DNA of 64,000 nucleotides from a virus (IMGVR_UViG_3300030376_003859:878-64877); one strand, 5' to 3'. Numbered from the stretch's first letter, positions 15,615-44,784 are shown. Numbers and translations: made by a program. The notes: generated by a model from the letters alone, not told the origin.

Positions 15615-16166
15615 TCACCCGAAGTATTTATCTAACATATTTTTCATATGTTCTTTTGTTTCCATTACATCTTCATCTAATGATAGTTCCATTCCTGCTG
15701 CACTTCTAAAATATCCTGTAATTTCAGGATAGTCATATTCCGTTGCGTCATCTATTAAATTCATTAACTCCGTTGCTTTCTTTTTTACTATACTGTCGGG
15801 TAGATATTTGTATTCTATATCTTCATCATGAGAAATGCCTCTTGGCATCCCCATTTCCTTTTTGTTCCTTATGTTTCTATTAACGGTATATTCTTTATCG
15901 CCTTCTAGCCATTTTTCTTTATTTGTTTTCAAGGCTTGCTTTATCATAGGTTTTCCTTCATCTTTTATTGAATATATTTTAGACCCAAAAAAAGCATAAA
16001 TCAATGCTTCGTCTAAAGAAGGAGTCCAATATTCGGTATCTTCTTTTCCTTGTGTTCCTTGAAATAATTTACTGTAAGTATCAATGTAATCCTTTATTGG
16101 GGAATCATCTAAATCAAAAATAGTAGATTGTATTTTATAAGGTGATTTGAGAATGTTTTTCCACAT
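15615..16166 (-). CDS. WxxILK-tagged protein, possible ADP-ribosyltransferase-like fold
   Basis: Starts MWKNILKS; LFQGT...YWTPSLDEALIYA resembles the HGT...YxTxSxxxAxxYA pattern of HYE-clade ARTs. Confidence 0.4.
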   Translation of the reverse strand: MWKNILKSPYKIQSTIFDLDDSPIKDYIDTYSKLFQGTQGKEDTEYWTPSLDEALIYAFFGSKIYSIKDEGKPMIKQALKTNKEKWLEGDKEYTVNRNIRNKKEMGMPRGISHDEDIEYKYLPDSIVKKKATELMNLIDDATEYDYPEITGYFRSAAGMELSLDEDVMETKEHMKNMLDKYFG

Positions 16167-16167
16167 A

Positions 16168-16386
16168 TTAATGACCCCATAAATCCGATACCCTGTCTAT
16201 AATCCAACCCATTATATTAATATCGAATACGCCCATTATATTACCAATAAGAAAAGCGGATAAAGCACCGCAACTTCCCCAAAACCACGCTCTCATTTTC
16301 AAAAAGAAAACATCGGCAGAATGCGCTCTTGATTGGTTATAAGCATAATCCGAATCCGAGAACCCCATTAAATCCCCAAAGACCAT
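16168..16386 (-). CDS. Small membrane protein
   Basis: Hydrophobic segment AWFWGSCGALSAFLIGNIMGVF. Confidence 0.6.
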   Translation of the reverse strand: MVFGDLMGFSDSDYAYNQSRAHSADVFFLKMRAWFWGSCGALSAFLIGNIMGVFDINIMGWIIDRVSDLWGH

Positions 16387-16397
16387 TCTTTCACCGC

Positions 16398-16781
16398 CTA
16401 TTGTAGTGCGGCTAAGAACTCATTTCCGACAGTATTCTCTTCTTCTTCGGAAATACTTTGATAAAGATTAGTATTATACTGTCGTGCGCTTTCACGCATT
16501 TTCTGTCTTTGTTGTTCGTCTCTTGCTTTTCTTTCCCAAAAGGCCGCTATCTTTCTGTCAAGAAGCCACATTTCTATCTTGTCATTTAAGACTAAATCAA
16601 ATATGGCTTTCATAACCATGATTGCACCTATTGTTCCTAATCCAAACAAAACCGAATGGGCTAATGCTCCATAAGGAAATCCTGTTCCAAATTGAGCATA
16701 CGCCCAAACATTTGTTCCACTCAATGCTCCGACAAAAAGTATAGTCATAACTAAACGGGTATCTTGGCTTAACGCTGGCAT
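16398..16781 (-). CDS. Two-TM membrane protein with C-terminal coiled coil
   Basis: Two hydrophobic stretches followed by a charged helix (WERKARDEQQRQKMRE). Confidence 0.65.
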   Translation of the reverse strand: MPALSQDTRLVMTILFVGALSGTNVWAYAQFGTGFPYGALAHSVLFGLGTIGAIMVMKAIFDLVLNDKIEMWLLDRKIAAFWERKARDEQQRQKMRESARQYNTNLYQSISEEEENTVGNEFLAALQ

Positions 16782-16790
16782 AATAAAACC

Positions 16791-17069
16791 TCAAGCAAAT
16801 TCAATAGAAACTGCAACTTGACCTGCATCTTCTTCAAAGAATAATCCATTTGAACAGATTACTCCATGCATATCAAATTCAACTGTTTGATTAGCGGATA
16901 AAACAATTCTTGCTAATTCTTTACCACTTGCCGCACTTGCATTATCCCACACTTTTATAGTTGCGGATGAACCCCCAACTTCACAAGCATGAATAGAAAT
17001 CAATTTACACTTTCCGGAATAAACTACTGCGCTTCCGGTTAATACTCCACTACTTCTACAACTCGGCAT
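16791..17069 (-). CDS. Small beta-sandwich virion (head decoration/spike-like) protein
   Basis: 92 aa, all-beta pattern, downstream of the MCP. Confidence 0.5.
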   Translation of the reverse strand: MPSCRSSGVLTGSAVVYSGKCKLISIHACEVGGSSATIKVWDNASAASGKELARIVLSANQTVEFDMHGVICSNGLFFEEDAGQVAVSIEFA

Positions 17070-17127
17070 ATCTCTATCTCCTTCAAATCATGAACAGGGG
17101 CTTTCCCTATTAATGCTATGGGTCTAA

Positions 17128-17448: not shown

Positions 17449-17459
17449 CTAAATCACCC

Positions 17460-17805: not shown

Positions 17806-19158
17806 TCACAGAAGGTTTGTAATTTTGCCTTGACCCTTGAAGTATGAACAGCCCATTTCTCCCATTGTTCGGTAAAGAGCCTTGTTTCCAAGTGTTCCGA
17901 CACCGAATGGGTTTCCGTTTGAAATACCATCTTCAAAGTATTGAGTTGGCTTCATAACAGATAGCCACAAATGGTCTGTATCAAGGAAAAGCATATCACT
18001 AATCAAAGAAGAGTTTGTTCCTGTTGAAGTCATAGCGGCAACCGGAATCATTGGTATGTCGTAGTAAGTTGAAACTCTAAATCCTACTTCTTGACCCTTT
18101 ACGCCTCTTACTCCATTAACAGTTGGAACAATTTCTTTTCTGTCCATGAATCTTTCTTGTGCTTGTAGTAAGTCGGAAATAGTTTGTAGAGTATCATATC
18201 CTGTTAGAATAACCTTTGGAGAACCACCTGCAACTCTTAGTCTTCTAATCATATCGTTTAGAACAGTTAGAGTTAATTGTCGTGCTTCTGCTGAAAGGTA
18301 GCCATCACCGAAAGAAACTTCGGAATCAAGATATTCATTTCCTGCATCGCTTCTTTGCTTTCCGTAAAGATGGTCAATTGCTTGGTCAGTAGCACTATCA
18401 ACAAGGTTTCCACCGTTGTTATCTGCTAATTCGGCAATTTCATCCGAGTTAGAAATAATCTTCAATAGAGAAGTATATCCTCTATCAATGGCATTTGCAG
18501 TATTATATGCAGTTGTTGGAGAATAGTTTTCCAAAGGCATAACAAGCATTTGGTTTTGAACTTCTGCGTGATGCTTGCCCATATCCTCTCTTAATTGCGC
18601 TCTAATATCGCCAATTCCATCATCAATAGAAGCCATTTCCATAGCCAATTCGCTGAAAGAGAATTGATGTGCAATAATCTTAGGGCTTGTAAATAGTGTA
18701 TCATACTCCGGTGCAATAGAAATCAATCCATCAGTATTAGAATCTAATGAAGCGTTTTCAGGAACACCACCAATTCTGTCTGCTCTAAGTGCATCTTCAC
18801 CATATAGAGAATCAGCCAAAGCAGTATTTGAAGCGGCAGAAATATCCAATTTGTTTCCTGCTCCACCTGCGGGTCTTTTCTTCAAAATTCTCCAACCACT
18901 TGATGAATAAGGTCTTTTTGAAATAACCGATAGTGCGTTACATTCTCGGTTTAGCATAGACCATACTTTTTGGCCGTAAATCTTGTTGTAAAGATTTGCG
19001 TTAATGCCCGATGGTGCGCTTAACGAGCCATCGTGTGCAGTATGAATACCTGCTACTGTTCCTGCGGCCTTAAGCAATTGATTGCTAATATGGCCTGTTG
19101 CGCCTGTTCCATAGGTTTGTGCTTCTAAATCTGCTATTGTGTTAATATATCCTGACAT
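17806..19158 (-). CDS. Major capsid protein (HK97 fold)
   Basis: 450 aa after protease/scaffold; PKIIAHQFSFSELA...QLREDMGKHH, KVILTGYDT and YRTMGEMGC match the HK97-fold layout. Confidence 0.9.
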   Translation of the reverse strand: MSGYINTIADLEAQTYGTGATGHISNQLLKAAGTVAGIHTAHDGSLSAPSGINANLYNKIYGQKVWSMLNRECNALSVISKRPYSSSGWRILKKRPAGGAGNKLDISAASNTALADSLYGEDALRADRIGGVPENASLDSNTDGLISIAPEYDTLFTSPKIIAHQFSFSELAMEMASIDDGIGDIRAQLREDMGKHHAEVQNQMLVMPLENYSPTTAYNTANAIDRGYTSLLKIISNSDEIAELADNNGGNLVDSATDQAIDHLYGKQRSDAGNEYLDSEVSFGDGYLSAEARQLTLTVLNDMIRRLRVAGGSPKVILTGYDTLQTISDLLQAQERFMDRKEIVPTVNGVRGVKGQEVGFRVSTYYDIPMIPVAAMTSTGTNSSLISDMLFLDTDHLWLSVMKPTQYFEDGISNGNPFGVGTLGNKALYRTMGEMGCSYFKGQGKITNLL

Positions 19159-19159: not shown

Positions 19160-20362
19160 TTAATAACCTCCTACCATTTTATGAATATCCGACCATTCCA
19201 TTTCGGCCAAATCATCCATACTTGGGAGTTCAATTGTTGCCTCTTCTTGTGCTTTTAGGATTGTTTCCTTTTCAGCAGTTAGAGACTTTCTTAGTGCGGT
19301 AAATTCATCCTTTAGAGATGCAATTTCACTTGCCGCATCATATTGAGACTTTGCCAAAATAGATTCTTTTGCAGAAACTTCTCGGTTAAATCTTGATTCA
19401 AATGACTTTTGAAGGTTGTCGTAAGCCAACTTTTCAAGTTGTTCTTGACGGTAAGCCTCATATGCTTTCTCAATGTTTCCAACTGACAAATCAAGAGTTT
19501 CTAATTCGCTGTTGTCAAATGCTTTAACAACGGGCAAATCGGATGCTTTTGGGTTGCCATTATCAATAACAACTCTATCGGCAGGTTCGCCAATTTCAAT
19601 TCCACCAGCATCAAGAGTGTTTAGAACGGCTTTATTAGAATCATCCATATATTCCTCTTTTTCTTCTTCAACTTCTTCTTTCATGTAATCGCCTTTTTCC
19701 GTCATTTCGTCTTCGGGCTTTTTCATGTCCATTTTGTCTTCTTCTTCTTCCTTGCGTAGAGTATTGACTTCTGCCATTAGCGCATCTAACTCTTCAAGTG
19801 CTTTTTCTATCTTGCTCATATTTTTCACTTCCTGTTTTGTGTTTTTTTCTTGTTTTAAAATATCAAATCTTGCTTCGGGGTTAATTCCTTTTTCACATAT
19901 TGTAACTTCATGTAATTCAAGTTTGCTAATTTCATTGTAATCTCCTAATTCTTGGTGGTTTTTCTTTACTTTTTCTAAAGCCTGTCCTCCAATACTAAAT
20001 GACCTCAATGAACCTTTTCTTATGCCTCTATTAATTTCTTTGGCTTTTTCTATATCGTCTCTTAACTTAATTACTACAAAGAATCCTACATCATCTACTT
20101 CGGTTTTCCATAGTCTCCCTGTTTTGTCTCTATATGATTTTACTACTTCTCCAACTTGAACATTAGAATGATTTGTCATTACATTTCTAAATTTTGGGTT
20201 CTCCATATATTTTTTAACTGCTTCGTTAAGTGCTTTGAGTGTGATTAAGTCATTTTGTTTATCAACGATTTCGATGCTTGCATATCCTCCAATCATTAAA
20301 TCGTCTTGTGCTTTAAGAATCCTGAAATCGTTTCTGCTTCTATTCATTACAGATGATACCAT
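19160..20362 (-). CDS. Prohead protease fused to scaffold domain
   Basis: GYASIEIVDKQND, SFSIGG and LHEVTICEKGINPEARF motifs of the HK97-type protease; acidic coiled-coil C-terminal half. Confidence 0.9.
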   Translation of the reverse strand: MVSSVMNRSRNDFRILKAQDDLMIGGYASIEIVDKQNDLITLKALNEAVKKYMENPKFRNVMTNHSNVQVGEVVKSYRDKTGRLWKTEVDDVGFFVVIKLRDDIEKAKEINRGIRKGSLRSFSIGGQALEKVKKNHQELGDYNEISKLELHEVTICEKGINPEARFDILKQEKNTKQEVKNMSKIEKALEELDALMAEVNTLRKEEEEDKMDMKKPEDEMTEKGDYMKEEVEEEKEEYMDDSNKAVLNTLDAGGIEIGEPADRVVIDNGNPKASDLPVVKAFDNSELETLDLSVGNIEKAYEAYRQEQLEKLAYDNLQKSFESRFNREVSAKESILAKSQYDAASEIASLKDEFTALRKSLTAEKETILKAQEEATIELPSMDDLAEMEWSDIHKMVGGY

Positions 20363-20390
20363 TCCTCTCAACCCTTTCTTATACTATCCA

Positions 20391-20405: not shown

Positions 20406-22916
20406 CTAATTTTTAGCCGGAATTGGCAATTTACTGTATTTATCTTCATATATATTCCATAAACCTTTATCGCCTTCTGTATCAGCAGGTTCTTGTTTAT
20501 ACCCTGTCCATGCAAGCCACATTTCTTTTCCTTCAACCTTGATTACTCTAAAATGCATCTTAGTTTCAAATTTATTACCTTTCAAAAAGTATTCATGATA
20601 GCCTTCTTTTTGGACACCTAACTCAATATCCCCTGCATCAACTACCTTTCCTCTTTCAACATTTTTAGCCACTTCTGCCGGATATTTACCTGCCGCACCA
20701 AACAAATCAAACATTTCTTCTTGATTATCTAAGTCAATAGTCCAAAATAAACTTTCATCTTCAAGTTTAATACCTAATGTTATGTTGTTATCTTCTCTTG
20801 AATATATTTTAAACAAACCCTTTCTGTTTTCTTTTGGGGTTTTATACTCTTTTTTAATCTCTTCTTCTTGCATAATTTTATCATCATCAGCATGAAGTTT
20901 CTTATCTTTAATTGAAATACCGTCTCTATTTTCCGCCCAATCTTTCAATTTAGTCTTTTTAGATTCTAACACATCTTCATAAATATCTTTATGCTTATCC
21001 TTCAAGAAATCATGAACATCATTTACTGTCTTATCTCCCATTGTTTTTAGATGTTGAAAAATAGCAACTGTTAATTGACTTGATTTAGTTTTCATTATTT
21101 CTTCTGCTTGGGCTTTCCACATATCTAAATCTGCTAAAGCATTCTTAGACATTAGATTATCTTCTTCAAAACCATAGATTACAAAACCATTCATATCCGA
21201 TTTCATGATTACATTTGTTTCACCATGTATGTAATCAGTTAATTTGATTCCCTTTGTGAGTGCTTCCACCTTATAATTAAGTGATTTTTTAGTATCTTGT
21301 GATAGAAGTTCAAGAGTAATCAGTTTATCGGGGTGTTCAACTTCCGGTATCTCAATTACCTTTGCTGAAAATAAACTAAAGCCTTCTCCCTTTTTCTTAA
21401 CTTCATCAACTTTAACTCTAACAATATCCCCAACATCAACCGCTACTTTAGTATTCAATGCTTTACCTACACCAAGATATTTTTTACCATCAATTTCTTG
21501 TCCTTCCATGTCATCAGGAATTGGCCCAACGCCCACAGTATATGAATAAAGATTGCTTTTCGTCTTTTTCTTATCTAAAACTATTACATCTAAATCAACA
21601 AACTTCTTCCATTTAATCCATTTAGGGTTCTTTTTAGTTCCGATATAATATGTTGAAGTTGCATCTTTAATAACAACTCCTTCGGAAGTGGGAATATCCA
21701 TCATTTCTTTTGCATACTTCTCAACATCTTTTAGACTATCAGCCTGTCTTGTATCTTTTTTAGAAGGATAAGCAATTGCTTGATTAGACTTTGATGAATA
21801 GTTATTGAATAAAATAGTCATTCTATCTTCTAACTCTTCATCTGTCAATGTTTGGGATTCATGTCGTATAATATCAAACACATGACACTTTAATTTAGCA
21901 TCTTTGTATTTGTTTTTAAAAACATGAGCAATAGTATCTGCTCTATGTAGTGCATCATCACCGTCAAAAAGAATTAACTCCCCATCTAAAATACAATCCC
22001 CGTATTCCTTTTTCTTAAGTTCCTCAACTTGGTCTTTACACTTATCAGTAATGTCTTTTTCATTATAAGAATAGATTTTAACCGAGCCATCTATTTTATG
22101 CAACTGTATTCTCATACCATCATATTTTTCTTGGACATACCAATTACCACTAAAGCCCTTTAACTCATTAATGTCGTCTATTTCAAATATCCTATACATT
22201 GGTTTATTAGGAACAATAAATTGAGAAATGGACTTTTCTGTTAATTCTTTTTGTGATTTCTCTAATCCTTCTATTTCTTTTAAGTCTGTCCATTCTTTCT
22301 CTTCATGTTGAGAAAAGAAAATAAGTTCTAATAGTTCCATTCCTGCCTTTACTTTCGATTCAACTTTCTTTGAGTCTTTTCCATCACCGTAATGCTCTAT
22401 AATATAGAGGGCAATATCATCCGATTCAAGGTCAAGTCCAACAAGACCCTCCGTTATTGTGTCGGGTTGCATACCTTTAATGGCTAAAATGTCCGGAGAT
22501 AGTGCTTTATTGTCGTCTCTTAGTGCATAATGAATGAATTTCACCATAGTTTCGGGATTATCTAACAATTCTTCAAGGACACTACCTTTAAACATTTCAG
22601 CGAAAGGGTCAGCAACTATTTTAGAAGAGTATCTAATGAGTTTTATTTTTTCAAACAGTTGTTTCGCTTCTCTTGATATTGGGTTTTTAACTTCTTTATT
22701 TTCCATTTCATCTTCATCAATAAAATTTCTTAACTCTTTACCTGCGGCATCTAATTCTTCATATGATTCTATAATTAAATCAACCGCTTTTCTCCAACGG
22801 CTTCCATATTCATCGGGGTCATGAACGGCTGATAAATAAGCGACTCTTGTTTTTTCAAAGAGTCTTAGTATTTCTTGAGAAGGCTGTTTATCCTTCTCAA
22901 TAGAGCCGAGTTTCAT
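20406..22916 (-). CDS. lig: ATP-dependent DNA ligase with long N- and C-terminal extensions
   Basis: Motif I EKYDG, LDGEL, HVFDII, EGVVIK, KWIKWKK, then an OB domain (LDVIVL...GDIVRVK). Confidence 0.9.
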   Translation of the reverse strand: MKLGSIEKDKQPSQEILRLFEKTRVAYLSAVHDPDEYGSRWRKAVDLIIESYEELDAAGKELRNFIDEDEMENKEVKNPISREAKQLFEKIKLIRYSSKIVADPFAEMFKGSVLEELLDNPETMVKFIHYALRDDNKALSPDILAIKGMQPDTITEGLVGLDLESDDIALYIIEHYGDGKDSKKVESKVKAGMELLELIFFSQHEEKEWTDLKEIEGLEKSQKELTEKSISQFIVPNKPMYRIFEIDDINELKGFSGNWYVQEKYDGMRIQLHKIDGSVKIYSYNEKDITDKCKDQVEELKKKEYGDCILDGELILFDGDDALHRADTIAHVFKNKYKDAKLKCHVFDIIRHESQTLTDEELEDRMTILFNNYSSKSNQAIAYPSKKDTRQADSLKDVEKYAKEMMDIPTSEGVVIKDATSTYYIGTKKNPKWIKWKKFVDLDVIVLDKKKTKSNLYSYTVGVGPIPDDMEGQEIDGKKYLGVGKALNTKVAVDVGDIVRVKVDEVKKKGEGFSLFSAKVIEIPEVEHPDKLITLELLSQDTKKSLNYKVEALTKGIKLTDYIHGETNVIMKSDMNGFVIYGFEEDNLMSKNALADLDMWKAQAEEIMKTKSSQLTVAIFQHLKTMGDKTVNDVHDFLKDKHKDIYEDVLESKKTKLKDWAENRDGISIKDKKLHADDDKIMQEEEIKKEYKTPKENRKGLFKIYSREDNNITLGIKLEDESLFWTIDLDNQEEMFDLFGAAGKYPAEVAKNVERGKVVDAGDIELGVQKEGYHEYFLKGNKFETKMHFRVIKVEGKEMWLAWTGYKQEPADTEGDKGLWNIYEDKYSKLPIPAKN

Positions 22917-23458: not shown

Positions 23459-23713
23459 TTAGTTTCCCTCCACTTGTTCTACCATTTTGTGTATTTCCGA
23501 CCAATCCATGTTGCTAACATCTGTTGTTGGTAATGCACCAATTCCACCTATTGAATTATCAATAGCGGGTGTTGGGCTATTAGATACAACGAATCCGGCC
23601 TTTCTTAAAATACTATCCTTTGAATATACGGTTCTTTCTAATTCTTCAACTTTAGTTGTTAAAGCCTTAATTATTGTTAGCAGTTCTTCATTTATTGTTT
23701 TATTTTCTGTCAT
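23459..23713 (-). CDS. Small coiled-coil protein sharing the scaffold C-terminal motif
   Basis: Ends MDWSEIHKMV, versus scaffold MEWSDIHKMV. Confidence 0.65.
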   Translation of the reverse strand: MTENKTINEELLTIIKALTTKVEELERTVYSKDSILRKAGFVVSNSPTPAIDNSIGGIGALPTTDVSNMDWSEIHKMVEQVEGN

Positions 23714-34442: not shown

Positions 34443-36926
34443 TCACCTAAAATTTGCTTTAATCAAATAAACTTGCTCTTTACTAATTCCGTATTCTGTT
34501 GAAATATTGCTATGTGAATCAACCGCCTTTACAATTTGCTCCACTTCAAACATTGTCAAGTCAATGTTTTCATCAACTTGCATCTTATTAATGACTCTTT
34601 CGATTCCATATTCATTTAGTGGAACATAACCATAAACAAGAGGCTTCCCTAATTGTTCTCTTACTGCGTCATGTGCTTTCAATAGTTTATGCAATAGAAC
34701 AGGTAGGTCAGTTTGTGCGCTTTCAAAGATAGTTTTGAGTCTGTTGTATTCTGTTTTCATAGCAGGACTTTTCTTTGTTAGAATACCTTGATTCATGTCA
34801 AGCCAATGAGGAAGTGCAAATACAGGGAATGGTTTTCTCGCCATATATTGCTTATCAAACAAATCGGCTCTTTCTTTGATAGTCTTTCCATCAAAATCAT
34901 TTTCTGCCCTGCTTAAATCCCCTATATCTTCCATAAAATGATGAATTAAAGCCGCACAATAATTGTTATTTGCTTCCTCTTTTCCAAAAATTTCAGTTAA
35001 TGCTTCTGCCGCAAACTCTCCTTCTGTAATAATATCAGCATCAATTTTAACGCTCGGCATAAATATATTATCTAAGAAATCAGCAATTGCTCTTAAGTCT
35101 CCTTCATCTACTTCTTCTACTGAACCTTCAAACAGGGTATCATATGAAGCCGACATAACAGTTTCTAATCCTAAATCTAAACTTAAAGTCTGCATAACTT
35201 TTGACCCAATACTTGAACCAAAACGAGGAATTTCTAATGGTAGTAATCCACTATACAACGGGTCAAAGAAATAATCAATTGCTGAATCCATCATCTTTTG
35301 TAGTTCGCTTTGGAATTTAGCAAACTCTCCCCTAAATTCTCCTTTTTGATTTAATGACATTGGAACTTTTGCACTTCCTGTTAATCCTTCCAAATCCGTT
35401 CCTCTTGCTTCTCTATAATCTTGAACAGAACCTCTCCTTCTTCCTTTTGTAGTTCTTGCTTCAACTTCTGCTCTAAAATCTTCACTACTCAAAAGATTGT
35501 ATAAATCACCAAAGAAATATTTAATTTTATCAAGATTATCTAAACCTATATCTTTGTTATTTGCTATTGATTTAAATTTGTTCTCATCATATAGTTTAGC
35601 GAAAGTGGTATTACTCAAAACAGAAATTGGTAATGCCATTGTTTTAACATCGCCATCATCAAGAGTCGTAGTATCATCTATCTCATCAAACCAATTTTCA
35701 ATATCTGTTGATGTGTCTAATGAAACACCCTTCCCCTCATCAATTGCATCTTCAACTTTTCTTAAAAGTTCTAATAAAACTCTTTCCATTTCATCATTAA
35801 TAGCAATCAGTCTTTCTCCTTTTTGATATTCATAAATCAATAGAGGGTCTGCCGCACCAAATATGCTTTCATAATCTTCTTCCCATTTTGGCTCATCAAA
35901 CAATTCATCTCTATAATTTTCTATATCTATTGTATCGCCTTCTGTGCTACTTGAACCTGCTATTCCCGATTCCAACTCTTCTCTTAATTTTTGGTTAATA
36001 TCAGCATATTGTTGGTCTTTGGGGGTTTCTCCTTCTTCACCAAAATTTGATTCGGCATCTTCTCTTCTTGTTAAACCTTCTAACATCATTCTATATGCAA
36101 CCAAATTAAAAAATCTGTGCTTTGGGGCTAAAAATTCTTCTTCAACATCTGTAAATTCTGCGATATATTCTAAGTTAATATCATTTACATCGTTGTATAA
36201 TTTTTCAAATAATTTTTCTACTGATGCATTTTCCCATTCAATATTTTTAACTGCAACAAAAAATGCCGCTAAATCATTTTCAAAATCATCATATTTTTTG
36301 CCTATATCCGCCCAATAATCATAAACTTGCATTCTATTTTGTTTTTTAGAAACATTGATTGCGCCTAAAAATTTGTTGCGTGGAAATTTGCTTTTAAGTT
36401 GAACATACTCTCTAACATTGGCAATATCTCCAAGAGTTTGTAGAATTTTTTGGACATTTTTCCTAAATGCTTCCGTCATTCCTTCGGCAGTTAGCATTCT
36501 TTCAACATCGGGTCTATCTAATAGTTCCGGCTTGGGATTTCTTATGTCTATTTTTCCTTTTATTTCTTCATTCATAAGATAGTTTTCATTAATCAATTGG
36601 CCGTCTGCATACAGATTCATTTGTGTTAATGGTTTTAATAACATATTAAAAGAGGATTGAGTAGCCCTTGCTCCCCTACCCTCTTCGTTAATACGATTTT
36701 TAATATGTTCTCTAACTTCTTTTCCTTTTTCTTCTAAGGAGTTAAGCATAGCCTGTCTTTCTTCTGTATCGTCAATTGTCCTTGCTTCGTCTTTTAGTTT
36801 ATCTTTAAATTGATTAACTAATTTAGAAATCAATTGTCTTCGTGTTAATGGATTAGAAGTTGCTAATTCATTTACTTTTTCGGCAGACAAATTCAGCATT
36901 TTTATTTCTTCTTCGCTTAGTGCCAT
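34443..36926 (-). CDS. Large acidic helical protein (putative internal/ejection protein)
   Basis: About 827 aa, no catalytic motif recognised, inside the tagged-gene block. Confidence 0.55.
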   Translation of the reverse strand: MALSEEEIKMLNLSAEKVNELATSNPLTRRQLISKLVNQFKDKLKDEARTIDDTEERQAMLNSLEEKGKEVREHIKNRINEEGRGARATQSSFNMLLKPLTQMNLYADGQLINENYLMNEEIKGKIDIRNPKPELLDRPDVERMLTAEGMTEAFRKNVQKILQTLGDIANVREYVQLKSKFPRNKFLGAINVSKKQNRMQVYDYWADIGKKYDDFENDLAAFFVAVKNIEWENASVEKLFEKLYNDVNDINLEYIAEFTDVEEEFLAPKHRFFNLVAYRMMLEGLTRREDAESNFGEEGETPKDQQYADINQKLREELESGIAGSSSTEGDTIDIENYRDELFDEPKWEEDYESIFGAADPLLIYEYQKGERLIAINDEMERVLLELLRKVEDAIDEGKGVSLDTSTDIENWFDEIDDTTTLDDGDVKTMALPISVLSNTTFAKLYDENKFKSIANNKDIGLDNLDKIKYFFGDLYNLLSSEDFRAEVEARTTKGRRRGSVQDYREARGTDLEGLTGSAKVPMSLNQKGEFRGEFAKFQSELQKMMDSAIDYFFDPLYSGLLPLEIPRFGSSIGSKVMQTLSLDLGLETVMSASYDTLFEGSVEEVDEGDLRAIADFLDNIFMPSVKIDADIITEGEFAAEALTEIFGKEEANNNYCAALIHHFMEDIGDLSRAENDFDGKTIKERADLFDKQYMARKPFPVFALPHWLDMNQGILTKKSPAMKTEYNRLKTIFESAQTDLPVLLHKLLKAHDAVREQLGKPLVYGYVPLNEYGIERVINKMQVDENIDLTMFEVEQIVKAVDSHSNISTEYGISKEQVYLIKANFR

Positions 36927-36930
36927 AATA

Positions 36931-39273
36931 TCATTCCTCTTCTGTTCCGTCTGCATATCTTATTAGATTTTCATTGATAAATTGTTTCTTTGCATTTATT
37001 ACTTGATTGTCGGGAAAAGTCGCTGGTTTATCAACAAATTCTTGTAGTTTATTCTTAAAAGCCCCTATTAATTCTTCCTGCATTGTTTTTAGTATATTAG
37101 GCATTTGCTCATTTAACTTCTGTGCTTCGGCTTTCGCTATTTCTGCGTTAGAATCAATTTTAATAAAGGCTTCTCTTATTTCATTGTTATTAGTATGTTC
37201 AGCCATTTGTGCAAGGAAACTTAAACTTCTTTCCGGAGTTATCTTATCTAAAGCACTTGCTGACCTATCAATAGTATTAACAAACGCTTCTAATCCCCCT
37301 TTATCCTTTAGTTTTCTTGACATAGAAACAACATAATCTGCAAAATCATCGGTTGTTAAAAGTTCATCTCTTAATTTTGCGGTTTGTTCGCCAAAGTCTG
37401 TTAATGTTTTGCCGGAGGTCTTTCTATCTTTAGTTTGTTTTAGCCTCATTTCATAACGGGCAATATTTCTTTTTGTTGCTTCTTGTAGTTCTTGTAGTTG
37501 AAGAGGTTTCATAGTTGGCTCGCCTTCATCATCTTTAGGCAAATTTTCTGCACTAAATTTAGAATATTTACCTAACTTTTCCTTAGCCTTGCGTATTTTT
37601 TCTTCTAAGTCCTTGATTAAATCATCAATTTTTCCTTTAGCAGATTCCGGAGCATCACGGCTCGTTGCTTTCATTCCTATTTTATAAGCATCTCTTGGAT
37701 TAATTTTTTCTCCGGCTAAAGATACCGAAGCATGGTTAGCATAAGTTCTAATATTTAGTTTTTCAAAAATAATATTACCTTCATTATCTCTTTTTGGAAC
37801 ACCATCTTCTAAAATAGGTTGAGGTTCTTCGGAGTCTAACGCTCTACCGTTTCTAAAGTATTTAATTTCTAAATCATCCATTGGAAAATCTTCGGGGTCG
37901 CTTTCGCTTAGAGTTTTGTAGAATTTTTCAAAATTATTTGCTTCTTGAATAGTAAAGTCCTCGCCCAAGTATTGCAGTTGCTCGGATTGTAGATTTAGTT
38001 TAGCATCTTCTACTTGGTTTCCTAAAATCCTGCTTGAATTTATAAAATTTCTAATTTCTTTTTTTACAGCCTTCTTGGTTTTAGTTTTTGCACCTTGAAT
38101 GCCGTTTTCTCCAATAAGACTCCCAACATATAGATTACTAATTGTTCTTTCTTCATCTGCTATAACTGCTTGATAGATTTCTTCAACAATTATCTGTTCA
38201 GCCTCTTTTATACTTAACATTTCATTACTTCTTAGTGTATCAAAGAATTGTTTTTGCCATGTTGCGCTATTTGAAAAGTCATTTGTTATAACTAAAGAAG
38301 AATATGGATTCAAATTCATACTATTTGAACTTGATTTTTCTAAAAATAGAACAGAAGGCAGACTTCTTCTATTTGGAAGGGTTGTTGGCCTAAATGCTCT
38401 TACACTACCTTTAGTTTTATCAACTGCTCTAACATATTTTATTACAGAAGCACCTGTAAATGGCTCAATTAATTCTAATTTTTTATTTGAAGCGACAAAT
38501 ATCTTTTTTTGTCTAACTAAGTCGTCAATTTCAATATTGTTATCGCCAATATTGAGTTTCATACCCAAATTTCTCTCTTCTCCTTGCATTTTGTTGTAAA
38601 TTATTTTAATTTGTTCTTTTCTTTTAACAACTTCCGGAGAATCTAAAACTTTATCTCGCTTTTTGTTCATTTTTATTGACATTAAGGCAACAATTTCACT
38701 TTCCGACTTAAAATTAACTAAAATCCCATCACCCTTTACTGTTCCATTGATTAATTTAGCAAATTCTTTGATTAAACTTTTGTTTTTTGGAGGATTATCA
38801 AAAATTATAGTCGATTTATTGCCTTTCATTCTCAATAAATCTAATTTATCTCTTAAGTCTCTATTTCTTTTAAGAGTAGAGACGGACAAATCAGCATTTT
38901 GGTCTATATTTTCTAAAATTTCATCAACTCTTTGGTGATTATTATTTCTTTTTGCTTCGGTTGCTTCATTTACTAACTCTTTGACTTCATCGGTTGTCAA
39001 AAATCGTGCCGCTTCCTTTATTTTTTGAACATTTTCTTTCATTTGTTCTAAAGTTTGGTCGCCATGTGGAGGCTGACCGTATAAATCTTTTAAATTCTGT
39101 AAATCTAACTGTTTATTTTCAACACTTCTTAATAATTCTTTAAGTGCTTTAGGAGTCTTTGATAGATTTTCTATTTCTTTTATTGCCTTTTCAGTTTCTT
39201 TGGCGTTAGTTATAACATAACCTAAAGTAAAGTTATCTAACGGAATCATTTTTAATAATTCAAACCAAGACAT
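36931..39273 (-). CDS. Large WxxILK-tagged protein (putative internal/ejection protein)
   Basis: Starts MSWFELLKM; about 780 aa, coiled-coil rich. Confidence 0.6.
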   Translation of the reverse strand: MSWFELLKMIPLDNFTLGYVITNAKETEKAIKEIENLSKTPKALKELLRSVENKQLDLQNLKDLYGQPPHGDQTLEQMKENVQKIKEAARFLTTDEVKELVNEATEAKRNNNHQRVDEILENIDQNADLSVSTLKRNRDLRDKLDLLRMKGNKSTIIFDNPPKNKSLIKEFAKLINGTVKGDGILVNFKSESEIVALMSIKMNKKRDKVLDSPEVVKRKEQIKIIYNKMQGEERNLGMKLNIGDNNIEIDDLVRQKKIFVASNKKLELIEPFTGASVIKYVRAVDKTKGSVRAFRPTTLPNRRSLPSVLFLEKSSSNSMNLNPYSSLVITNDFSNSATWQKQFFDTLRSNEMLSIKEAEQIIVEEIYQAVIADEERTISNLYVGSLIGENGIQGAKTKTKKAVKKEIRNFINSSRILGNQVEDAKLNLQSEQLQYLGEDFTIQEANNFEKFYKTLSESDPEDFPMDDLEIKYFRNGRALDSEEPQPILEDGVPKRDNEGNIIFEKLNIRTYANHASVSLAGEKINPRDAYKIGMKATSRDAPESAKGKIDDLIKDLEEKIRKAKEKLGKYSKFSAENLPKDDEGEPTMKPLQLQELQEATKRNIARYEMRLKQTKDRKTSGKTLTDFGEQTAKLRDELLTTDDFADYVVSMSRKLKDKGGLEAFVNTIDRSASALDKITPERSLSFLAQMAEHTNNNEIREAFIKIDSNAEIAKAEAQKLNEQMPNILKTMQEELIGAFKNKLQEFVDKPATFPDNQVINAKKQFINENLIRYADGTEEE

Positions 39274-39277: not shown

Positions 39278-39547
39278 TCACTTTCCATTAACTGCTCGCA
39301 GAATAACTTTAATTAAATCAAAAACCTGTTGTTTGTTATTATTACTTTGGCCTTTGGCAGATTCAAAAAGAATTTTAATATCGCTTTTAGCATCGGGTGG
39401 CGAGGTATTATACAATGCTTGTAGTTCTTTTAATTCATTGGGGATTGGTTTGTCTTTCCATTTTTCATAGTCATATTCTCCTGTAAGAACATCGCCTAAA
39501 TCTTCCCATTCTTTTTCGTCTTTTTTAATTATTCTTTCCCAAACCAT
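39278..39547 (-). CDS. WxxILK-tagged protein
   Basis: Starts MVWERIIKK. Confidence 0.65.
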   Translation of the reverse strand: MVWERIIKKDEKEWEDLGDVLTGEYDYEKWKDKPIPNELKELQALYNTSPPDAKSDIKILFESAKGQSNNNKQQVFDLIKVILRAVNGK

Positions 39548-39548: not shown

Positions 39549-39713
39549 TTACCACCTATAACCTCTTAAATTTTCTAATGCGTCATAAAATATATCTTCT
39601 AATTTTTGGATTCTACCGTCTTTGTATTCTTGTTTCAAATCTTCAATTATTCGTAGAGCCTTCTTAATCTCATTAACCATATCATATTTTTTGATTTGAT
39701 TTTTCCAAGACAT
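39549..39713 (-). CDS. WxxILK-tagged 54-aa protein (missed by ORF track)
   Basis: Manual translation MSWKNQIKKYDMVNEIKKALRII...GYRW*. Confidence 0.65.
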   Translation of the reverse strand: MSWKNQIKKYDMVNEIKKALRIIEDLKQEYKDGRIQKLEDIFYDALENLRGYRW

Positions 39714-39714: not shown

Positions 39715-40842
39715 TTAATCCCACTTAATTATATCAAACCAAGCCTTCTTGAAACCTCTTCTTGGTTTTACCCTTTCCATTCTTTCACGATATGCTCTTT
39801 TTCTTTCCTTTTTTTCTTTTTTCCTTTTTTCAGCCGCCAATTCTTCTTCTTTTTTTCGTTCTTTTAGCGAAGGATTTCTTTTTCCTTTTTCTCTTGCGAA
39901 ACGATTTCTGCCATAATCATTATTTTTTCTTGCCCTTTCAGCCGCTTGGGTTTTCCTGTACTCTTGTAGTTTTCTTTGTTCTTCTTTGTATTTATCTGAA
40001 TTTAAATAATCTGTTTCTTCTTTTATTTTCATTCTTAGAACAGGTATAAAAATATTTTGATTTACCCAACGCCTGTTTATTGGCAGTTGTTGTCTTAAAT
40101 ACAAATCATGTTTGTTTTTTCCAAATGCTCCCCTTAAGGCTCTATTAGCCGAATCAACAACATCATCTGCATCTATTCTATTTTGAACTAAACGGGAAGA
40201 ATTTTCAAGTTCCAATAGGTGTTGTTTGTTGAATTTTTTAAACATAGGGTCTTTTTCTAAAACATCTATTATAAATTTAGCAAAGCCTTGAACTTTATCT
40301 AAACCATATTTACTTTTAGTTTCATTCCATGCTTCAATATCTTCTGTCTTTCTTGACCTGTCCGGCCTCTTGAAATCTCTTTCGGGATATTTCTTTCTTT
40401 GTTTATCTGCTACTTCTTTACTTACACCAATAGCATAATACTTGGCAGTATCGGGGATAACCAAATTACCTAATTTATTTTGATAATTTGCTCTAATCCA
40501 ATCAGCATTTTTATCCCATACTTTGTAGCCTTCATCTCTTAATTTTTGATATAGCCCGCTTTGTTCATCAATCGGTCTATCTGTAATGAACCTAACTCTT
40601 TCGGAAACAAACTTCTGTGAACCCGACCTTGAAAATCTAATTGGGTTTTTTTCAGGATTATTCGCATCAAACATTCTTTCTGCGGGGTCGGGTTTTGAAA
40701 TTTCAATATGTATAACAGTCGCAGGGTTTTGTTTATCCCAATCTTCAATTATTTGCTTTAGCCTGTCGGGGTCATATTCAAAATTAATATCATAATCTGG
40801 AATAGATATTTTTGGCATTTTTAATATTGTTATCCAACTCAT
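39715..40842 (-). CDS. Protein tagged at both ends with the WxxILK motif
   Basis: Starts MSWITILKM; ends KKAWFDIIKWD. Confidence 0.65.
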   Translation of the reverse strand: MSWITILKMPKISIPDYDINFEYDPDRLKQIIEDWDKQNPATVIHIEISKPDPAERMFDANNPEKNPIRFSRSGSQKFVSERVRFITDRPIDEQSGLYQKLRDEGYKVWDKNADWIRANYQNKLGNLVIPDTAKYYAIGVSKEVADKQRKKYPERDFKRPDRSRKTEDIEAWNETKSKYGLDKVQGFAKFIIDVLEKDPMFKKFNKQHLLELENSSRLVQNRIDADDVVDSANRALRGAFGKNKHDLYLRQQLPINRRWVNQNIFIPVLRMKIKEETDYLNSDKYKEEQRKLQEYRKTQAAERARKNNDYGRNRFAREKGKRNPSLKERKKEEELAAEKRKKEKKERKRAYRERMERVKPRRGFKKAWFDIIKWD

Positions 40843-41514: not shown

Positions 41515-41847
41515 TTAAGAATTGGTTTCGGGTTGGGCTTCCTTGAGTTCTAATAGTTCTATTAGATAATCAAGGTCGGGTAAATCAAATTGATTAACCA
41601 TTTTCTTAACACCCTTAACGCCTCTAAGAGTCTTTCGATAATCAAATTGATTTAAAAATCTTCCAGTCTTATGTATGAGCATATCAAATTTTTCTTTTCT
41701 ATCTTCATCAAAATGTGGATAATATTTTTTCCTAATTCCGACCATGACATAATCAAATTCACTACCTATCACATCATTAAAATCATAATCATCAAGTCTT
41801 TCCACAGTCTGCCTTGCATCTCTTATTTTAATTACATCTTGCCACAT
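41515..41847 (-). CDS. WxxILK-tagged protein
   Basis: Starts MWQDVIKI. Confidence 0.65.
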   Translation of the reverse strand: MWQDVIKIRDARQTVERLDDYDFNDVIGSEFDYVMVGIRKKYYPHFDEDRKEKFDMLIHKTGRFLNQFDYRKTLRGVKGVKKMVNQFDLPDLDYLIELLELKEAQPETNS

Positions 41848-41848: not shown

Positions 41849-42997
41849 TTAATTCCTCCATAAAAGTTGTTGCCACATCTTAGAAATTATTTTTGCATCG
41901 GGGCTATATTTTCCTGTATCTTCACCGAACTTTTCTCTTGCAGTTTTTCTATAATCGAATCCACCCTTTCTTGCATTCTGCCATGCTCTAAATCCGTTTG
42001 GTGCTTTATTGGTATTGGCTCTCTTTAATGCTCTATCAACTAAACCAATAATAGGTAATGCCGTAGCAGTTAATTTGAAACTAATCACATTACCAACAAG
42101 TGCATCTCTTTCTTCCTTTCTTCCAAGATTTGCTATTTCCCTAATTGGGTTTTGCTCATTAGGTTTAACTTTAAACTCCGTAGCCTGTAATTCCGACCTC
42201 AATTTATTAACAAGAAGTTTTCCACCTGCGTTCCAAAAAGCAGTATTCTTAATTACACCATTAAAGAAATCCTCAACAGACTTAATTTCATCAATATCAA
42301 CTTCATCAACTCCGCTTGGTATCGTATCAACTTCTACCTCTAAATCAGTTTCTTTTTCCATGTTTTCTGCGTCTTTCATAATATACAGAAGACCTTTTGG
42401 TTTAGCATATTTTGTTGCAGTTTCGGAAAATAATGCTTGGTGTGGAGGATTATTTCCTGCAAGCCATTCTTTAGGAACTGCGCTAACACCTTCATTTCTT
42501 TCAGCATACCATTCAGTCGCATAATGTCCTTGAACTTCTCTTACTGCGAGTGTTTCTCCGGTTGCGCTTTTTGGCTTTTCAGTAAATAAAATAAATGCAG
42601 GGTCATAAGCCGGAGTGTCGCCTCCTATGTCTTTTCCTGTATCTTTCATTTTTTCTAAAGTATTAGCCATTCTTGCTATTAGTTGTGCTTGTTGAACAGT
42701 AAATAAATTATCGGGATTATCTACAAATCCTTCTATAACATTCAAAAATTGAACTGCTCCTTCACCATCTCTTCCATCATTACGACTACCGCCTCTAATG
42801 TATGGGTCTTTCAAATGATTCTTTAGCATATTGTAAAGATTAGGTATATTCTTTACTTGAAGGTCGCCACCACTAATTTGCTGACAATTAGTTCGCCACT
42901 TGTTAAAATTTTCAATAAATGGAAAATCTTGAGTTTGCTTCACTTTGTTTCCCTTGTGATTTTGAAACTCCTTCTTTTTCTTAGTTTCTTTTACCAT
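41849..42997 (-). CDS. Hypothetical protein with C-terminal motif variant
   Basis: About 382 aa; ends ISKMWQQLLWRN. Confidence 0.6.
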   Translation of the reverse strand: MVKETKKKKEFQNHKGNKVKQTQDFPFIENFNKWRTNCQQISGGDLQVKNIPNLYNMLKNHLKDPYIRGGSRNDGRDGEGAVQFLNVIEGFVDNPDNLFTVQQAQLIARMANTLEKMKDTGKDIGGDTPAYDPAFILFTEKPKSATGETLAVREVQGHYATEWYAERNEGVSAVPKEWLAGNNPPHQALFSETATKYAKPKGLLYIMKDAENMEKETDLEVEVDTIPSGVDEVDIDEIKSVEDFFNGVIKNTAFWNAGGKLLVNKLRSELQATEFKVKPNEQNPIREIANLGRKEERDALVGNVISFKLTATALPIIGLVDRALKRANTNKAPNGFRAWQNARKGGFDYRKTAREKFGEDTGKYSPDAKIISKMWQQLLWRN

Positions 42998-43841
42998 CTT
43001 CTTCTTCCTCCTTTTTCTTACCATATCTCGGTCTGCTTTCAAATCCGGCAGTTGTGGACATTACAGTTGTTGCCTGTTTTTCAAAGTCTTTAGCCCTTTC
43101 CCGACTAAAATCTACATCTTTAGCATCATAGTGAAGAATACTTCTAAACATTTCCATAATAACATCTTCAAACTTTTCACCATATCTATCCATTAAAACT
43201 GTAATATCTTGAACATCAACATCTCTAATATGTGGCTTTCCGGCCTTTCTTGCTAAAACTTCTAATCTTGTTAAAAGTTCCCTTGCCTCTTCTCTTTTTC
43301 CCTTATTTTTAATTTTATCAGTCAAAGAATCAACAAATGTCATTACTTCTCTTAGAACCCTTGTAGAGTTCTTTTGGTAAGCCCCCATATCATCAAGACC
43401 AATCATCATCGCACCCAATGGATTTATTATTTGTTCTCTTGTTGCAGGGTGTTGTAAATATTGTTTTATTCTTAGATATGTGCTATCAGGGAATTGACCT
43501 GTAAATGCTCCATATTCTGTTTGTTGGTCGGCCATTTCAAACTGTTCTTCTGCCATACCGCCATGAGTTGCTTCGTGCATAATGGTTCTTTTTACCCATT
43601 CCATTATTTGCTTATCTGTTGGTTCTTTACCTAATCTTTCTTTTAGATAGGAATAGATTTTAGACGGATTAATTCTAATTTTCTTTTCTAAAAAATCCAA
43701 TACTGTCGGGTTTGGCTTTTCTAATATTTCCTCAAACTTATCCGAACTAACAGGTTCAAATTTAAAATACCCAAAACCTCTTGCTTCGGGGTCTAAATCA
43801 AAATCAATATCTTCAACTTTTATAATTTCAAACCAATCCAA
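42981..43841 (-). CDS. WxxILK-tagged HExxH zinc-metallopeptidase-like protein
   Basis: TTG start after GGAGG gives MDWFEIIKV; IMHEATHGG plus a downstream Glu (QQTEYGA). Confidence 0.55.
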   Translation of the reverse strand: MDWFEIIKVEDIDFDLDPEARGFGYFKFEPVSSDKFEEILEKPNPTVLDFLEKKIRINPSKIYSYLKERLGKEPTDKQIMEWVKRTIMHEATHGGMAEEQFEMADQQTEYGAFTGQFPDSTYLRIKQYLQHPATREQIINPLGAMMIGLDDMGAYQKNSTRVLREVMTFVDSLTDKIKNKGKREEARELLTRLEVLARKAGKPHIRDVDVQDITVLMDRYGEKFEDVIMEMFRSILHYDAKDVDFSRERAKDFEKQATTVMSTTAGFESRPRYGKKKEEEEDGKRN

Positions 43842-43843
43842 AA

Positions 43844-44020
43844 TTATTCCTCCTTCATTGGACAAGATGGCTTTATTCCTGCTTTTGGTGAAGGTAGGCT
43901 TAAATTGCATCTTTGATATTTAGTTACCATTTCTTGACATCTGCGACAATATCCTGTTTTTTGAACTCTATGCTCAACATCTTTTTCAGTGTATTTAGCC
44001 ACGACATCTTGCCAAATCAT
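43844..44020 (-). CDS. WxxILK-tagged small Cys protein
   Basis: Starts MIWQDVVAK; CRRC...C...C. Confidence 0.6.
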   Translation of the reverse strand: MIWQDVVAKYTEKDVEHRVQKTGYCRRCQEMVTKYQRCNLSLPSPKAGIKPSCPMKEE

Positions 44021-44025
44021 GTTAA

Positions 44026-44316
44026 TCACTCTTGGTCTGTAAATGCGCCTCTTGGCTTTGATTTAGAATGATAGCCTTTATTCTTACAATGCTCACAACC
44101 CTTTCCTTTACATTTAGGGCATTCCATTTTGGCCTTTTTAGTCTCATTTAACATAGCAAAATCTTCGCCTGTTATTTTACCATCTTTGTTAGCATCAATT
44201 TTCTTTTGATTACCAATAAGTTTCTTTTCCAATTCTTGTTTTTCACATGAAGCACAACCACAGTTGCCTTTCTCCATTCCACAATGACCTTTTCTTACTA
44301 TGTCTCTCCAACTCAT
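44026..44316 (-). CDS. WxxILK-tagged mosaic of micro-domains (Cys cluster, EF-hand-like loop, DnaJ-type Zn finger)
   Basis: MSWRDIVRK; CGCASC; KLIGNQKKIDANKDGKITGEDF; CPKCKGKGCEHCKNKG. Confidence 0.6.
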   Translation of the reverse strand: MSWRDIVRKGHCGMEKGNCGCASCEKQELEKKLIGNQKKIDANKDGKITGEDFAMLNETKKAKMECPKCKGKGCEHCKNKGYHSKSKPRGAFTDQE

Positions 44317-44328
44317 TTTTTCACTTCC

Positions 44329-44784
44329 TTAAAATTTATTTTCTTGTCCTCTAAATTTATACGGTGTGTAAGTGGCAGGTCTTACAGAAGGCGGTTCACC
44401 TGCTTTACTTCCCCTTGTGTCTTCTTGTTCTGCCATTCTTTCATCATATTCTTCCTTAAATCTACCAAGACCGTATGTTTTCATATAATGACGCACCATT
44501 ATTCCAAACTTTTTTTGAGTCATTTTATGGTCGAAAGGAGGTTTTCCACTTTCTATATCTTCTAAAAATTGAACAATTGCCTCTTTGGGTTCTTTTCCAC
44601 CCCTTAGCAAATTATCTCTTTTTAACGACTCCCATTTACTACCTATATTTCCTCTCATATTTTGTTGATATATTTGATAATCATTTTCATCTTTATTAGA
44701 CCACTCTTCAAGAGTCATAGGTTTTCCATCTTCATCAAAAGTAAAGGTGTCTTTATCCTCTTTTAGAATACTACGCCAATTCAT
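44329..44784 (-). CDS. WxxILK-tagged protein
   Basis: Starts MNWRSILKE. Confidence 0.65.
   Translation of the reverse strand: MNWRSILKEDKDTFTFDEDGKPMTLEEWSNKDENDYQIYQQNMRGNIGSKWESLKRDNLLRGGKEPKEAIVQFLEDIESGKPPFDHKMTQKKFGIMVRHYMKTYGLGRFKEEYDERMAEQEDTRGSKAGEPPSVRPATYTPYKFRGQENKF

Follow-up and report, generated by a model that had tools for sequence, protein, structure and literature searches.

Unrelated genes in the head-gene block of a magrovirus share an N-terminal peptide that may be a lysine-cleaved analogue of the T4 capsid-targeting sequence

In phage T4, polymorphic internal proteins enter the scaffolding core by means of a capsid-targeting sequence (CTS) of ~10 residues, which the gp21 protease then removes (PMC9026906, PMC3012670, PMC9958956). 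Residues 4 and 7 of the CTS act in targeting and residues 8 and 10 in processing, and gp21 has a consensus-like site near its own N-terminus (PMC9026906). The CTS has also been shown to package GFP and nucleases (PMC9026906, PMC9958956, PMC3012670). Here we describe a shared peptide with the core W-x-x-[ILV]-[ILM]-K, hereafter the tag, that stands at the N-termini of 16–20 leftward genes in one stretch of viral DNA, and we compare it with the T4 CTS and with other systems that load cargo into protein shells. The stretch, hereafter the window, is 64,000 nt long (IMGVR_UViG_3300030376_003859:878-64877) and is nearly the whole of a 64.9-kb viral contig. A preliminary description of this DNA, which gave the T4 CTS as MKTYQEFIAE, had proposed that the tag is its Lys-cleaved counterpart in an archaeal virus.

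Cargo loading by peptides or N-terminal signals is also known from other shells. In encapsulins, short peptides direct cargo of many kinds to the inside of an HK97-fold shell; they are usually C-terminal and sometimes N-terminal or between domains, and the Family 1 consensus SDGSLGIGSLKRS ends in hydrophobic-Leu-Lys plus 2–3 residues (PMC8346489). In phage P1, a signal within the first 30 residues of DarB is enough to load a heterologous protein into the head, and the Dar cargo consists of anti-restriction proteins that are delivered with the DNA; these proteins have no consensus N-terminus and are loaded stepwise via DarA and Hdf (PMC9024508). The giant phages phiKZ and SPN3US, with genomes of >200 kb, have many head-internal proteins that carry long, unshared propeptides, are cleaved at one protease consensus ending in Glu, and are later ejected (PMC5694885, PMC7411985, PMC10052503).

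Between 15.6 and 45 kb of the window, the tagged leftward genes start with M-x(0-2)-W-x-x-[ILV]-[ILM]-K. All 17 N-termini reported in the preliminary description are present on the minus strand, and a Shine-Dalgarno-like GGAGG or GGTGAT lies 5–10 nt upstream of nearly all 17 starts. When looser variants (MSWKNQIK, MSWQQLK, MFIELLK and MTW...DFILK) are included, the number of tagged genes rises to ~20. The tagged genes and further copies are:

15615–16166, minus strand: 183 aa, MWKNILK; separated from the remaining tagged genes, on the immediate downstream side of the head genes; 17/17 homologues tagged
25927–26316, minus strand: 129 aa, MNWLSILK; directly after the portal gene; family 17, position kept in relatives, strict pattern in 40/52
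28380–28667, minus strand: 95 aa, MKWQEVMK; weakly DUF5754-like body; N-terminus read
28664–28933, minus strand: 89 aa, MTWENILK; N-terminus read
28939–29142, minus strand: 67 aa, MTWKNILK; winged-helix-like body (weak match); family 19, 42/44 members tagged
29139–29510, minus strand: 123 aa, MWFEVLK with a TTG start; DUF5872-like body (KDACYHKV...WPSAYASGALV), weak Pfam match
33667–33930, minus strand: 87 aa, MSSWEDFLK; N-terminus read
33935–34438, minus strand: 167 aa, MTWKDILK; N-terminus read
36931–39273, minus strand: 780 aa, MSWFELLK; largest tagged protein; family 26, kept in relatives
39278–39547, minus strand: 89 aa, MVWERIIK; N-terminus read
39549–39713, minus strand: 54 aa, MSWKNQIK, a degenerate tag; N-terminus read
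39715–40842, minus strand: 375 aa, tagged at both ends, MSWITILK and C-terminal AWFDIIK, then WD and stop (39724–39741)
41515–41847, minus strand: 110 aa, MWQDVIK; N-terminus read
42981–43841, minus strand: 286 aa, MDWFEIIK with a TTG start; family 49, kept in relatives
43844–44020, minus strand: 58 aa, MIWQDVVAK, with a one-residue insertion before Lys; N-terminus read
44026–44316, minus strand: 96 aa, MSWRDIVRK, Cys-rich; N-terminus read
44329–44784, minus strand: 151 aa, MNWRSILK; first tagged gene of the leftward block; N-terminus read
24065–25693, minus strand: core head-module gene, 542 aa, with the Phe variant MFIELLK and a second LLK at residue 17
28244 and 24068, minus strand: further degenerate copies, MSWQQLK and MTWDF...DFILK, respectively
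32304–33686, minus strand: gene just upstream of that for the terminase large subunit (TerL), with an internal copy, MKKWFSILK (33162–33188); family 20

Several counts indicate how far the tag is confined to one part of the window. Open reading frames (ORFs) of at least 40 aa contain the strict pattern W-x-x-[ILVF]-[ILM]-K 18 times, always on the minus strand and never on the plus strand. With a position-specific scoring matrix (PSSM) learnt from relatives, 16 of the 39 genes in the leftward block at 15.6–45 kb were called as tagged, versus none of the 51 other genes (14 in the tail block, 8 beyond 45 kb and 29 rightward; Fisher p = 1.8e-7). The preliminary description, too, had noted no such N-terminus among the rightward early genes. 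Shuffled proteomes had a mean of 0.025 tagged genes and a maximum of 1, and the DNA pattern for M-x-W-x-x-I-[LF]-K matched the window 6 times where 0.04 matches were expected.

The proteins that carry the tag range from 54 to 780 aa and have ~3,700 residues in total. They had been described as unrelated behind the tag, and this was confirmed: with the first 10 residues removed, BLASTP found no match at E <= 0.01 between any two of 20 tagged bodies, which also led to the rejection of paralogy among these genes.

Additional evidence came from 160 related loci (2.3 Mb), in which 644 of the 2928 genes on the head-gene strand (22%) are tagged, versus 16 of 318 on the opposite strand. Clustering of the bodies gave 228 families with tagged members, and in 24 families of at least five members at least half are tagged. 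Across these loci, no tagged member was found in the families of the major capsid protein (MCP), portal, protease-scaffold, TerL or ligase, or in any tail family. Two complete relatives (95–96 kb) have 7 and 16 tagged genes by PSSM, and ~11 and ~20 with variants; every one lies between a divergent control region and the head genes, and in these two genomes there is no tag on ~65 replication genes or on tail genes. Its occurrence is limited to the head module and the genes upstream of it. The number of tagged genes differs from genome to genome and most tagged families are rare; the tagged genes form an accessory set with fast turnover. In families 25 and 41, homologous bodies occur with the tag, without it, or with the tag behind another small module. 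The tag is therefore modular.

The anatomy of the tag was derived from 519 non-redundant tags from the window and the 160 related loci. The consensus, M-[STN]-W-[KEQF]-[DNE]-I-L-K, is eight residues long, with Trp at residue 3 in 77% of tags and otherwise at residue 2 or 4. Information content is ~3 bits at W+3, W+4 and W+5 and at most 0.4 bits at each later position, and the residue after Lys is variable (K/A/E/R/N). Because information content falls right after W+5, the functional unit of the tag stops exactly at Lys. Spaced as i, i+3 and i+4, the residues Trp, Ile and Leu fall on one helix face. In an AlphaFold2 (AF2) model of the tagged 183-aa protein, built from a 17-sequence alignment (predicted template modelling score 0.67), residues 1–8 are the sole N-terminal stretch with a predicted local distance difference test score (pLDDT) below 50, and the first strand begins at residue 10. 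In this model the tag looks like a free appendage.

High-scoring copies are found within proteins and at C-termini as well, both in relatives and in the window, where the two kinds that had been claimed are present (MKKWFSILK, with W at 33179, and KKAWFDIIKWD before a stop codon, with W at 39741). Most copies away from the N-terminus come after K-S or K-K. Each of 18 distinct C-terminal copies has 1–3 residues after its basic residue, which is Lys, or Arg where one residue trails, and in none does the stop codon come directly. The internal copy in the gene at 32304–33686 joins a variable N-terminal part to a conserved C-terminal part, and in some relatives of this protein (family 20) the ORF stops 1–3 residues after the copy. 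This arrangement suggests that family 20 proteins are split, fused or nested products.

Matches to Pfam and PHROGs identify the minus strand from ~2.4 to 45 kb as a tailed-virus late block, with these genes:

2.4–15.6 kb, minus strand: tail genes, part of the late block
17806–19158, minus strand: MCP of the SU10/HK97 type (Pfam/PHROG)
19160–20371, minus strand: Peptidase_S78 prohead protease fused to scaffold (Pfam Peptidase_S78 and PHROG head-maturation protease families)
20406–22916, minus strand: 836-aa protein with an ATP-dependent DNA ligase domain at residues 252–437, between the portal-side genes and the protease; it holds several hydrophobic-Lys sites
26316–27956, minus strand: portal, untagged, the anchor of the head module (Pfam/PHROG)
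30871–32301, minus strand: TerL, untagged (Pfam/PHROG)

The nearest isolate MCPs are those of archaeal tailed viruses, namely Haloarcula virus HCTV-1 (closest) and viruses of methanogens, and the portal shares 82% identity with its counterpart in Poseidoniales virus YSH_150918. IMG/VR holds hundreds of relatives, of which the complete ones are 92–97 kb. One hallmark of magroviruses, published by Philosof et al. 2017 (PMC5434244), is a ligase gene within the structural module; here too the ligase lies there, the head proteins are nearest to magrovirus/halovirus homologues, and complete relatives are ~95 kb. Because of the relatives of its MCP and portal, the genome sizes of its relatives and the ligase in its structural module, the contig is the incomplete genome of a magrovirus, a virus of Poseidoniales (Marine Group II archaea). 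The claim of an archaeal virus was therefore well founded. In the surface ocean, few archaeal viruses are more abundant than magroviruses. A shared N-terminus is mentioned neither by Philosof et al. 2017 (PMC5434244) nor in a 2025 Poseidoniales-virus paper, which were covered by a search of the magrovirus literature.

A possible link between the tag and head maturation came from the N-termini of the MCP and the protease, which are where prohead proteases typically trim MCPs and themselves. Two sites in the window are relevant:

19069–19077, minus strand: L-L-K at MCP residues 28–30, putative maturation cleavage site NQLLK|A
20312–20326, minus strand: F-R-I-L-K at residues 13–17 of the S78 protease-scaffold, putative autocleavage or propeptide site

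These sites were compared across three clades, the divergent ones (clades B and C) being reached via portal representatives at 62% and 44% identity. In the MCP, [ILVM][ILVM]K is present at residues 26–34 in 81 of 82 distinct N-termini (at 48 in two), in the form N-x-L-L-K followed by A/Q/G/S/T. The window has NQLLK|A, clade B has for example NSLLK|G, and both SDILK|A and SELLK|A are found in clade C. In the protease, 82 of 87 distinct N-termini have [FL]-x-I-L-K, mostly followed by S/A/G, 6–9 residues ahead of the conserved GYAS core, and the stretch that precedes it varies in length and sequence. The last three residues of the tag are the same [IL]-L-K. A third site, F-D-I-L-K|Q at the protease-scaffold junction, is inside the Pfam domain match and may be structural. 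A literature search found no N-terminal sequencing of the HCTV-1 MCP, and a CBASS-protease preprint held no data on S78 specificity.

The scaffold offers a second comparison. Docking tails are known at the C-termini of HK97-like scaffolds and proteases, such as the HK97 gp4 tail, and from the helix-turn-helix of the P22 scaffold. Similarly, the magrovirus protease-scaffold and a separate 84-aa protein end in a W-containing motif, MDWSDIHKMV:

19163–19201, minus strand: scaffold C-terminal tail MEWSDIHKMVGGY, of a motif class that is related to the tag but distinct from it, and kept in all clades compared
23483–23512, minus strand: the same tail motif (MDWSEIHKMV) near the C-terminus of the 84-aa protein (gene 23459–23713)

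The common form, M[DE]WS[DE]IHKMV, is similar to the tag's first half (M-x-W-x-[DE]-I). The tail reads MSWDEINELV in clade B and MSWDEVHNLA in clade C, both without Lys at W+5. Clade B tags stay W-x-x-I-L-K, and those of clade C (genomes of ~110 kb) are M-x-x-x-E-x-A-W-[VL]-[VM]-L-K or ...Y-S-I-L-K, with C-terminal ...S-I-E-S-I-L-K-G-W. The tail is a separate motif class, because it stays constant while the tag changes and lacks the Lys at W+5 in clades B and C. Common to the tags of all clades are thus an aromatic residue and hydrophobic-Leu-Lys, and not the sequence of the scaffold tail. For the same reasons it is less likely that the tag is simply a replica of this tail, or a mimic of a coat-binding helix.

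The reading that we prefer, as a substantial possibility that falls a little short of probable, is by analogy with T4: the tag would be a Lys-cleaved analogue of the CTS, a portable address-and-release label that was built independently. In this model, we infer docking, cleavage, packaging and delivery. The label, M-[STN]-W-x-[DNE]-[IV]-[LI]-K, would be built around the HK97-type (S78) prohead protease, which apparently cuts after Lys. Tagged proteins would be made late in infection, along with the head proteins, and Trp together with the Ile/Leu three and four residues on would form a hydrophobic face that docks to the prohead interior; candidate receptors are the scaffold domain, the MCP interior or inner capsid surface, and the protease or its substrate groove. 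Once the shell closes, the protease would cut after [IL]-L-K, the motif at which it may also cut the MCP and itself, and the cut would free N-terminally tagged cargo inside the head. W3 and I6 would then correspond to the targeting pair of T4, and L7-K8 to the processing pair. The cargo, fast-turning-over and mostly small soluble proteins, would stay with the DNA and probably be delivered to the next host.

The proposal in the preliminary description is supported in part: the virus is an archaeal tailed virus by its affinities, the peptide is portable and lies in or upstream of the head module, its [IL]-L-K ending is shared with the head proteins, and the layout is T4-like. In its simple version the proposal fares less well, and several observations weigh against it. 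The P1' residue is almost always small or Gln (A/S/G/Q/T, with one Asn variant) at the MCP and protease sites and K/A/E/R/N after the tag. Cleavage at C-terminal copies would remove 1–3 residues rather than release cargo. The tag and the scaffold tail do not co-vary, and a receptor shared with the scaffold is therefore unsupported. The ending itself, [IL]-L-K, carries little information in an AT-rich, Lys-rich proteome, with 0.77 loose sites per 100 aa. For a virus with complete relatives of ~95 kb, the ~3,700 residues of tagged protein would be a cargo of considerable size and variety. Finally, the net charge of tagged bodies is the same as that of untagged proteins; a role for tagged proteins as basic, DNA-condensing proteins was rejected because they are no more basic.

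Among the alternatives, there is a minor but appreciable chance that the tag docks to a hub other than the capsid and sets the localisation, folding or stability of cytoplasmic accessory proteins. Candidate hubs are the host chaperonin, proteasome-activating ATPase or a ubiquitin-like/replication hub, and the viral terminase, portal or 836-aa ligase-domain protein. This would suit a tag that acts as a short linear motif at N-termini, at C-termini and between modules, with a core, W-x-x-[ILV], of a common hydrophobic docking type; it would also suit the P1' residues, which are unlike those of the putative protease sites, and the hypervariable accessory cluster, which is typical of host-takeover or anti-defence genes. 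It is harder to reconcile with the restriction of the tag to the strand and block of the head genes, and with an ending that equals conserved MCP and protease sites in three clades. The tag also differs among clades that are all related to Poseidoniales viruses, a pattern more in keeping with a viral partner that co-evolves than with a fixed partner in the host, and in 61 archaeal genomes (~110 Mb) of the order of a Thermoplasmatales-labelled metagenome-assembled genome the DNA pattern that encodes the tag is ~190-fold less frequent per Mb than in the window (56 matches, control 27), although this host-signal comparison has limited weight. It is unlikely that the peptide is purely a processing site or propeptide for S78 or another Lys-specific protease, with no addressing role, whose removal would activate or mature proteins that act in assembly or in the cytoplasm. 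The [IL]-L-K ending common to the MCP and protease N-terminal sites, the polyprotein-like internal copies at module junctions, and the end of conservation at Lys are all as such a site would predict. However, the invariant Trp, the Asp/Asn/Glu at W+2 and the Ser/Thr/Asn before Trp are far more conserved than the corresponding positions of the MCP and protease sites, and selection therefore appears to act on more than a cleavage site. Trimming eight residues off 20 unrelated proteins would be purposeless unless the peptide had a prior function, and the C-terminal copies would lose just 1–3 residues. Prohead proteases of the S78 class are, moreover, generally active inside proheads.

A signal for stability or timing, as an N-terminal degron or anti-degron of late accessory proteins, is very unlikely. 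The tag is mostly strictly N-terminal, two to four residues from Met, and is carried by many unrelated small proteins, as might be expected of a degron, but C-terminal and internal copies exist, there is no link to a known archaeal degron, and the match to conserved head-protein sites would go unexplained. Conservation at the level of nucleic acid, as a translation-initiation enhancer or a recombination linker for cassette shuffling, is barely credible and was rejected as largely refuted by codon statistics on the 519 tags. Such a role would account for the position of the motif at gene starts directly after the ribosome-binding site, for the cassette-like hypervariable region, and for the codons of Ser before the tag Trp, which are AGT in 165 cases versus TCT in 26, though AGT makes up 22% of Ser codons genome-wide. 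The AGT bias may be an effect of start context. Elsewhere in the tag, however, Leu draws on all six of its codons, Ile on three and Lys on both, in approximately genome-wide proportions, as the claim that synonymous codons differ would have it, and the same residue in tags of different families has the same codon 0.51 of the time, which is the prediction from synonymous usage. Trp, which has a single codon, is invariant, and copies occur at C-termini and within proteins. Because tag codons vary freely, selection acts on the peptide rather than on the DNA.

Indirect support for an exchangeable label came from the DUF5872-like body of the 123-aa protein, which has 3,879 homologues. Close homologues carry W-x-x-[IV]-L-K variants directly before KDACYHKV, and distant ones from other marine viruses have MKFSEWLELRE in place of the tag. 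Contigs with the MKFSEWLELRE-type version have 3–5 more ORFs that start M-x(0-4)-F-x-[EQDNKS]-[WF]-[LIV] with Glu a few residues on, and in some other marine contigs 1–3 unrelated ORFs each start in this way (for example MKTFKEFLEQ, MKFKEWLNEQ and MKSFKQFLSES). These starts resemble the T4 CTS and end in a gp21-type [LI]-x-E, and a major head protein (phrog_138) is encoded on one contig of this type. T4-like cyanophages have the DUF5872-like domain inside a 500–620-aa protein encoded just upstream of the TerL gene; the DUF5872-like gene of Synechococcus phage Bellamy (gp123) follows TerS and a tail-fibre gene, and the DUF5872-like protein of S-SCSM1 (gp29) is annotated as a ‘virion protein’. 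These data lend indirect support to the proposal that this body is associated with the virion and that it trades one N-terminal label for another, each specific to a viral lineage.

The parallels with the CTS of T4 IPII and IPIII (and of IPI and Alt) are that a short N-terminal peptide (~10 residues in T4, 8 here) is carried by unrelated, polymorphic bodies near the head genes, that two hydrophobic or aromatic positions three residues apart are followed by a protease consensus (a putative one in the magrovirus), and that the protease has a consensus-like site near its own N-terminus. Differences are also evident. The putative P1 is Lys in the magrovirus, P1 is Glu in T4, and the tag sequence is unrelated; the magrovirus protease is of the Pfam Peptidase_S78, HK97 type and is fused to scaffold, with no gp22-type core protein; and the tag is on 16–20 genes per genome and >200 body families, with C-terminal and internal copies, in a virus with an archaeal host. 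Since the protease is S78/HK97-type, the putative P1 is Lys and the peptide is unrelated, the magrovirus tag is not a member of the T4 CTS system and would be an analogue of it.

The encapsulin peptides are like the tag in their terminal or inter-domain position, and the trailing residues after hydrophobic-Leu-Lys in their consensus recall the C-terminal copies of the magrovirus tag; the tagged genes likewise surround an HK97/SU10-type MCP gene (PMC8346489). This is a likeness without shown sequence homology: encapsulins have no genome, portal or maturation protease and their peptide is not removed, whereas the magrovirus has portal, TerL, protease and tail genes, so that its shell is no DNA-free compartment. 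Phage P1 also loads proteins by an N-terminal signal but lacks a shared eight-residue tag, and the phiKZ and SPN3US propeptides differ from the tag in being long and unshared.

A broader proposal, which we consider possible but doubtful, is that magroviruses carry a programmable cargo code, in which the tag would direct loading into an HK97-type prohead, a Lys-specific S78 protease would release the cargo, and delivery would be with the genome. Each virus would have 10–20 exchangeable injected effectors, drawn from >200 families; bodies such as the DUF5872-like one would cross between viruses of archaea and of bacteria through exchange of the tag specific to each lineage (W-x-x-I-L-K versus the T4-like M-K-x-F-x-E-[WF]-L-x-x-E), and address tags would be a general exchangeable currency of tailed-virus evolution. 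If this were true, a fifth of the genes in this virus group would be recognisable as virion cargo from sequence alone, and their ‘hypothetical proteins’ would become a catalogue of candidate host-takeover or anti-defence effectors for uncultured Poseidoniales. It would also mean that the T4 capsid-targeting principle was invented independently on a Lys-specific HK97-type protease, and would link phage cargo loading to that of encapsulins. Such a tag, eight residues long and removable by a protease, would offer a compact means of filling HK97-fold shells with chosen proteins.

The tagged bodies themselves gave few leads to function. Searches against Pfam and PHROGs returned just the weak DUF5754, DUF5872 and winged-helix matches. 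The 780-aa protein has no family and no match to a PDB sequence, and the ESM Atlas was uninformative for it; a single-sequence AF2 model of the doubly tagged 375-aa protein (pLDDT 47) was too poor to use. The 183-aa protein has no Pfam or PDB sequence match. Weak leads from the ESM Atlas (0.87) pointed to ART-PolyVal and Arr, and the best match of its AF2 model (pLDDT 66) in VIA was also Arr (9iaf_A), with Z 3.2 and a root-mean-square deviation of 5.8 over 97 residues, which is weak. Foldseek with the same model found no match, and the ADP-ribosyltransferase fold is unconfirmed.

Two further observations concern neighbouring genes. The gene for the 183-aa protein (15615–16166, minus strand) is inserted between head-proximal small genes and a GTPase-like gene, and is absent from that position in one complete relative. 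The relatives of an untagged 837-aa protein (34443–36956, minus strand) share a conserved C-terminal Y-x-I-K-A-x-F-R before the stop codon, and this ending may be a C-terminal variant of the hydrophobic-Lys motif.

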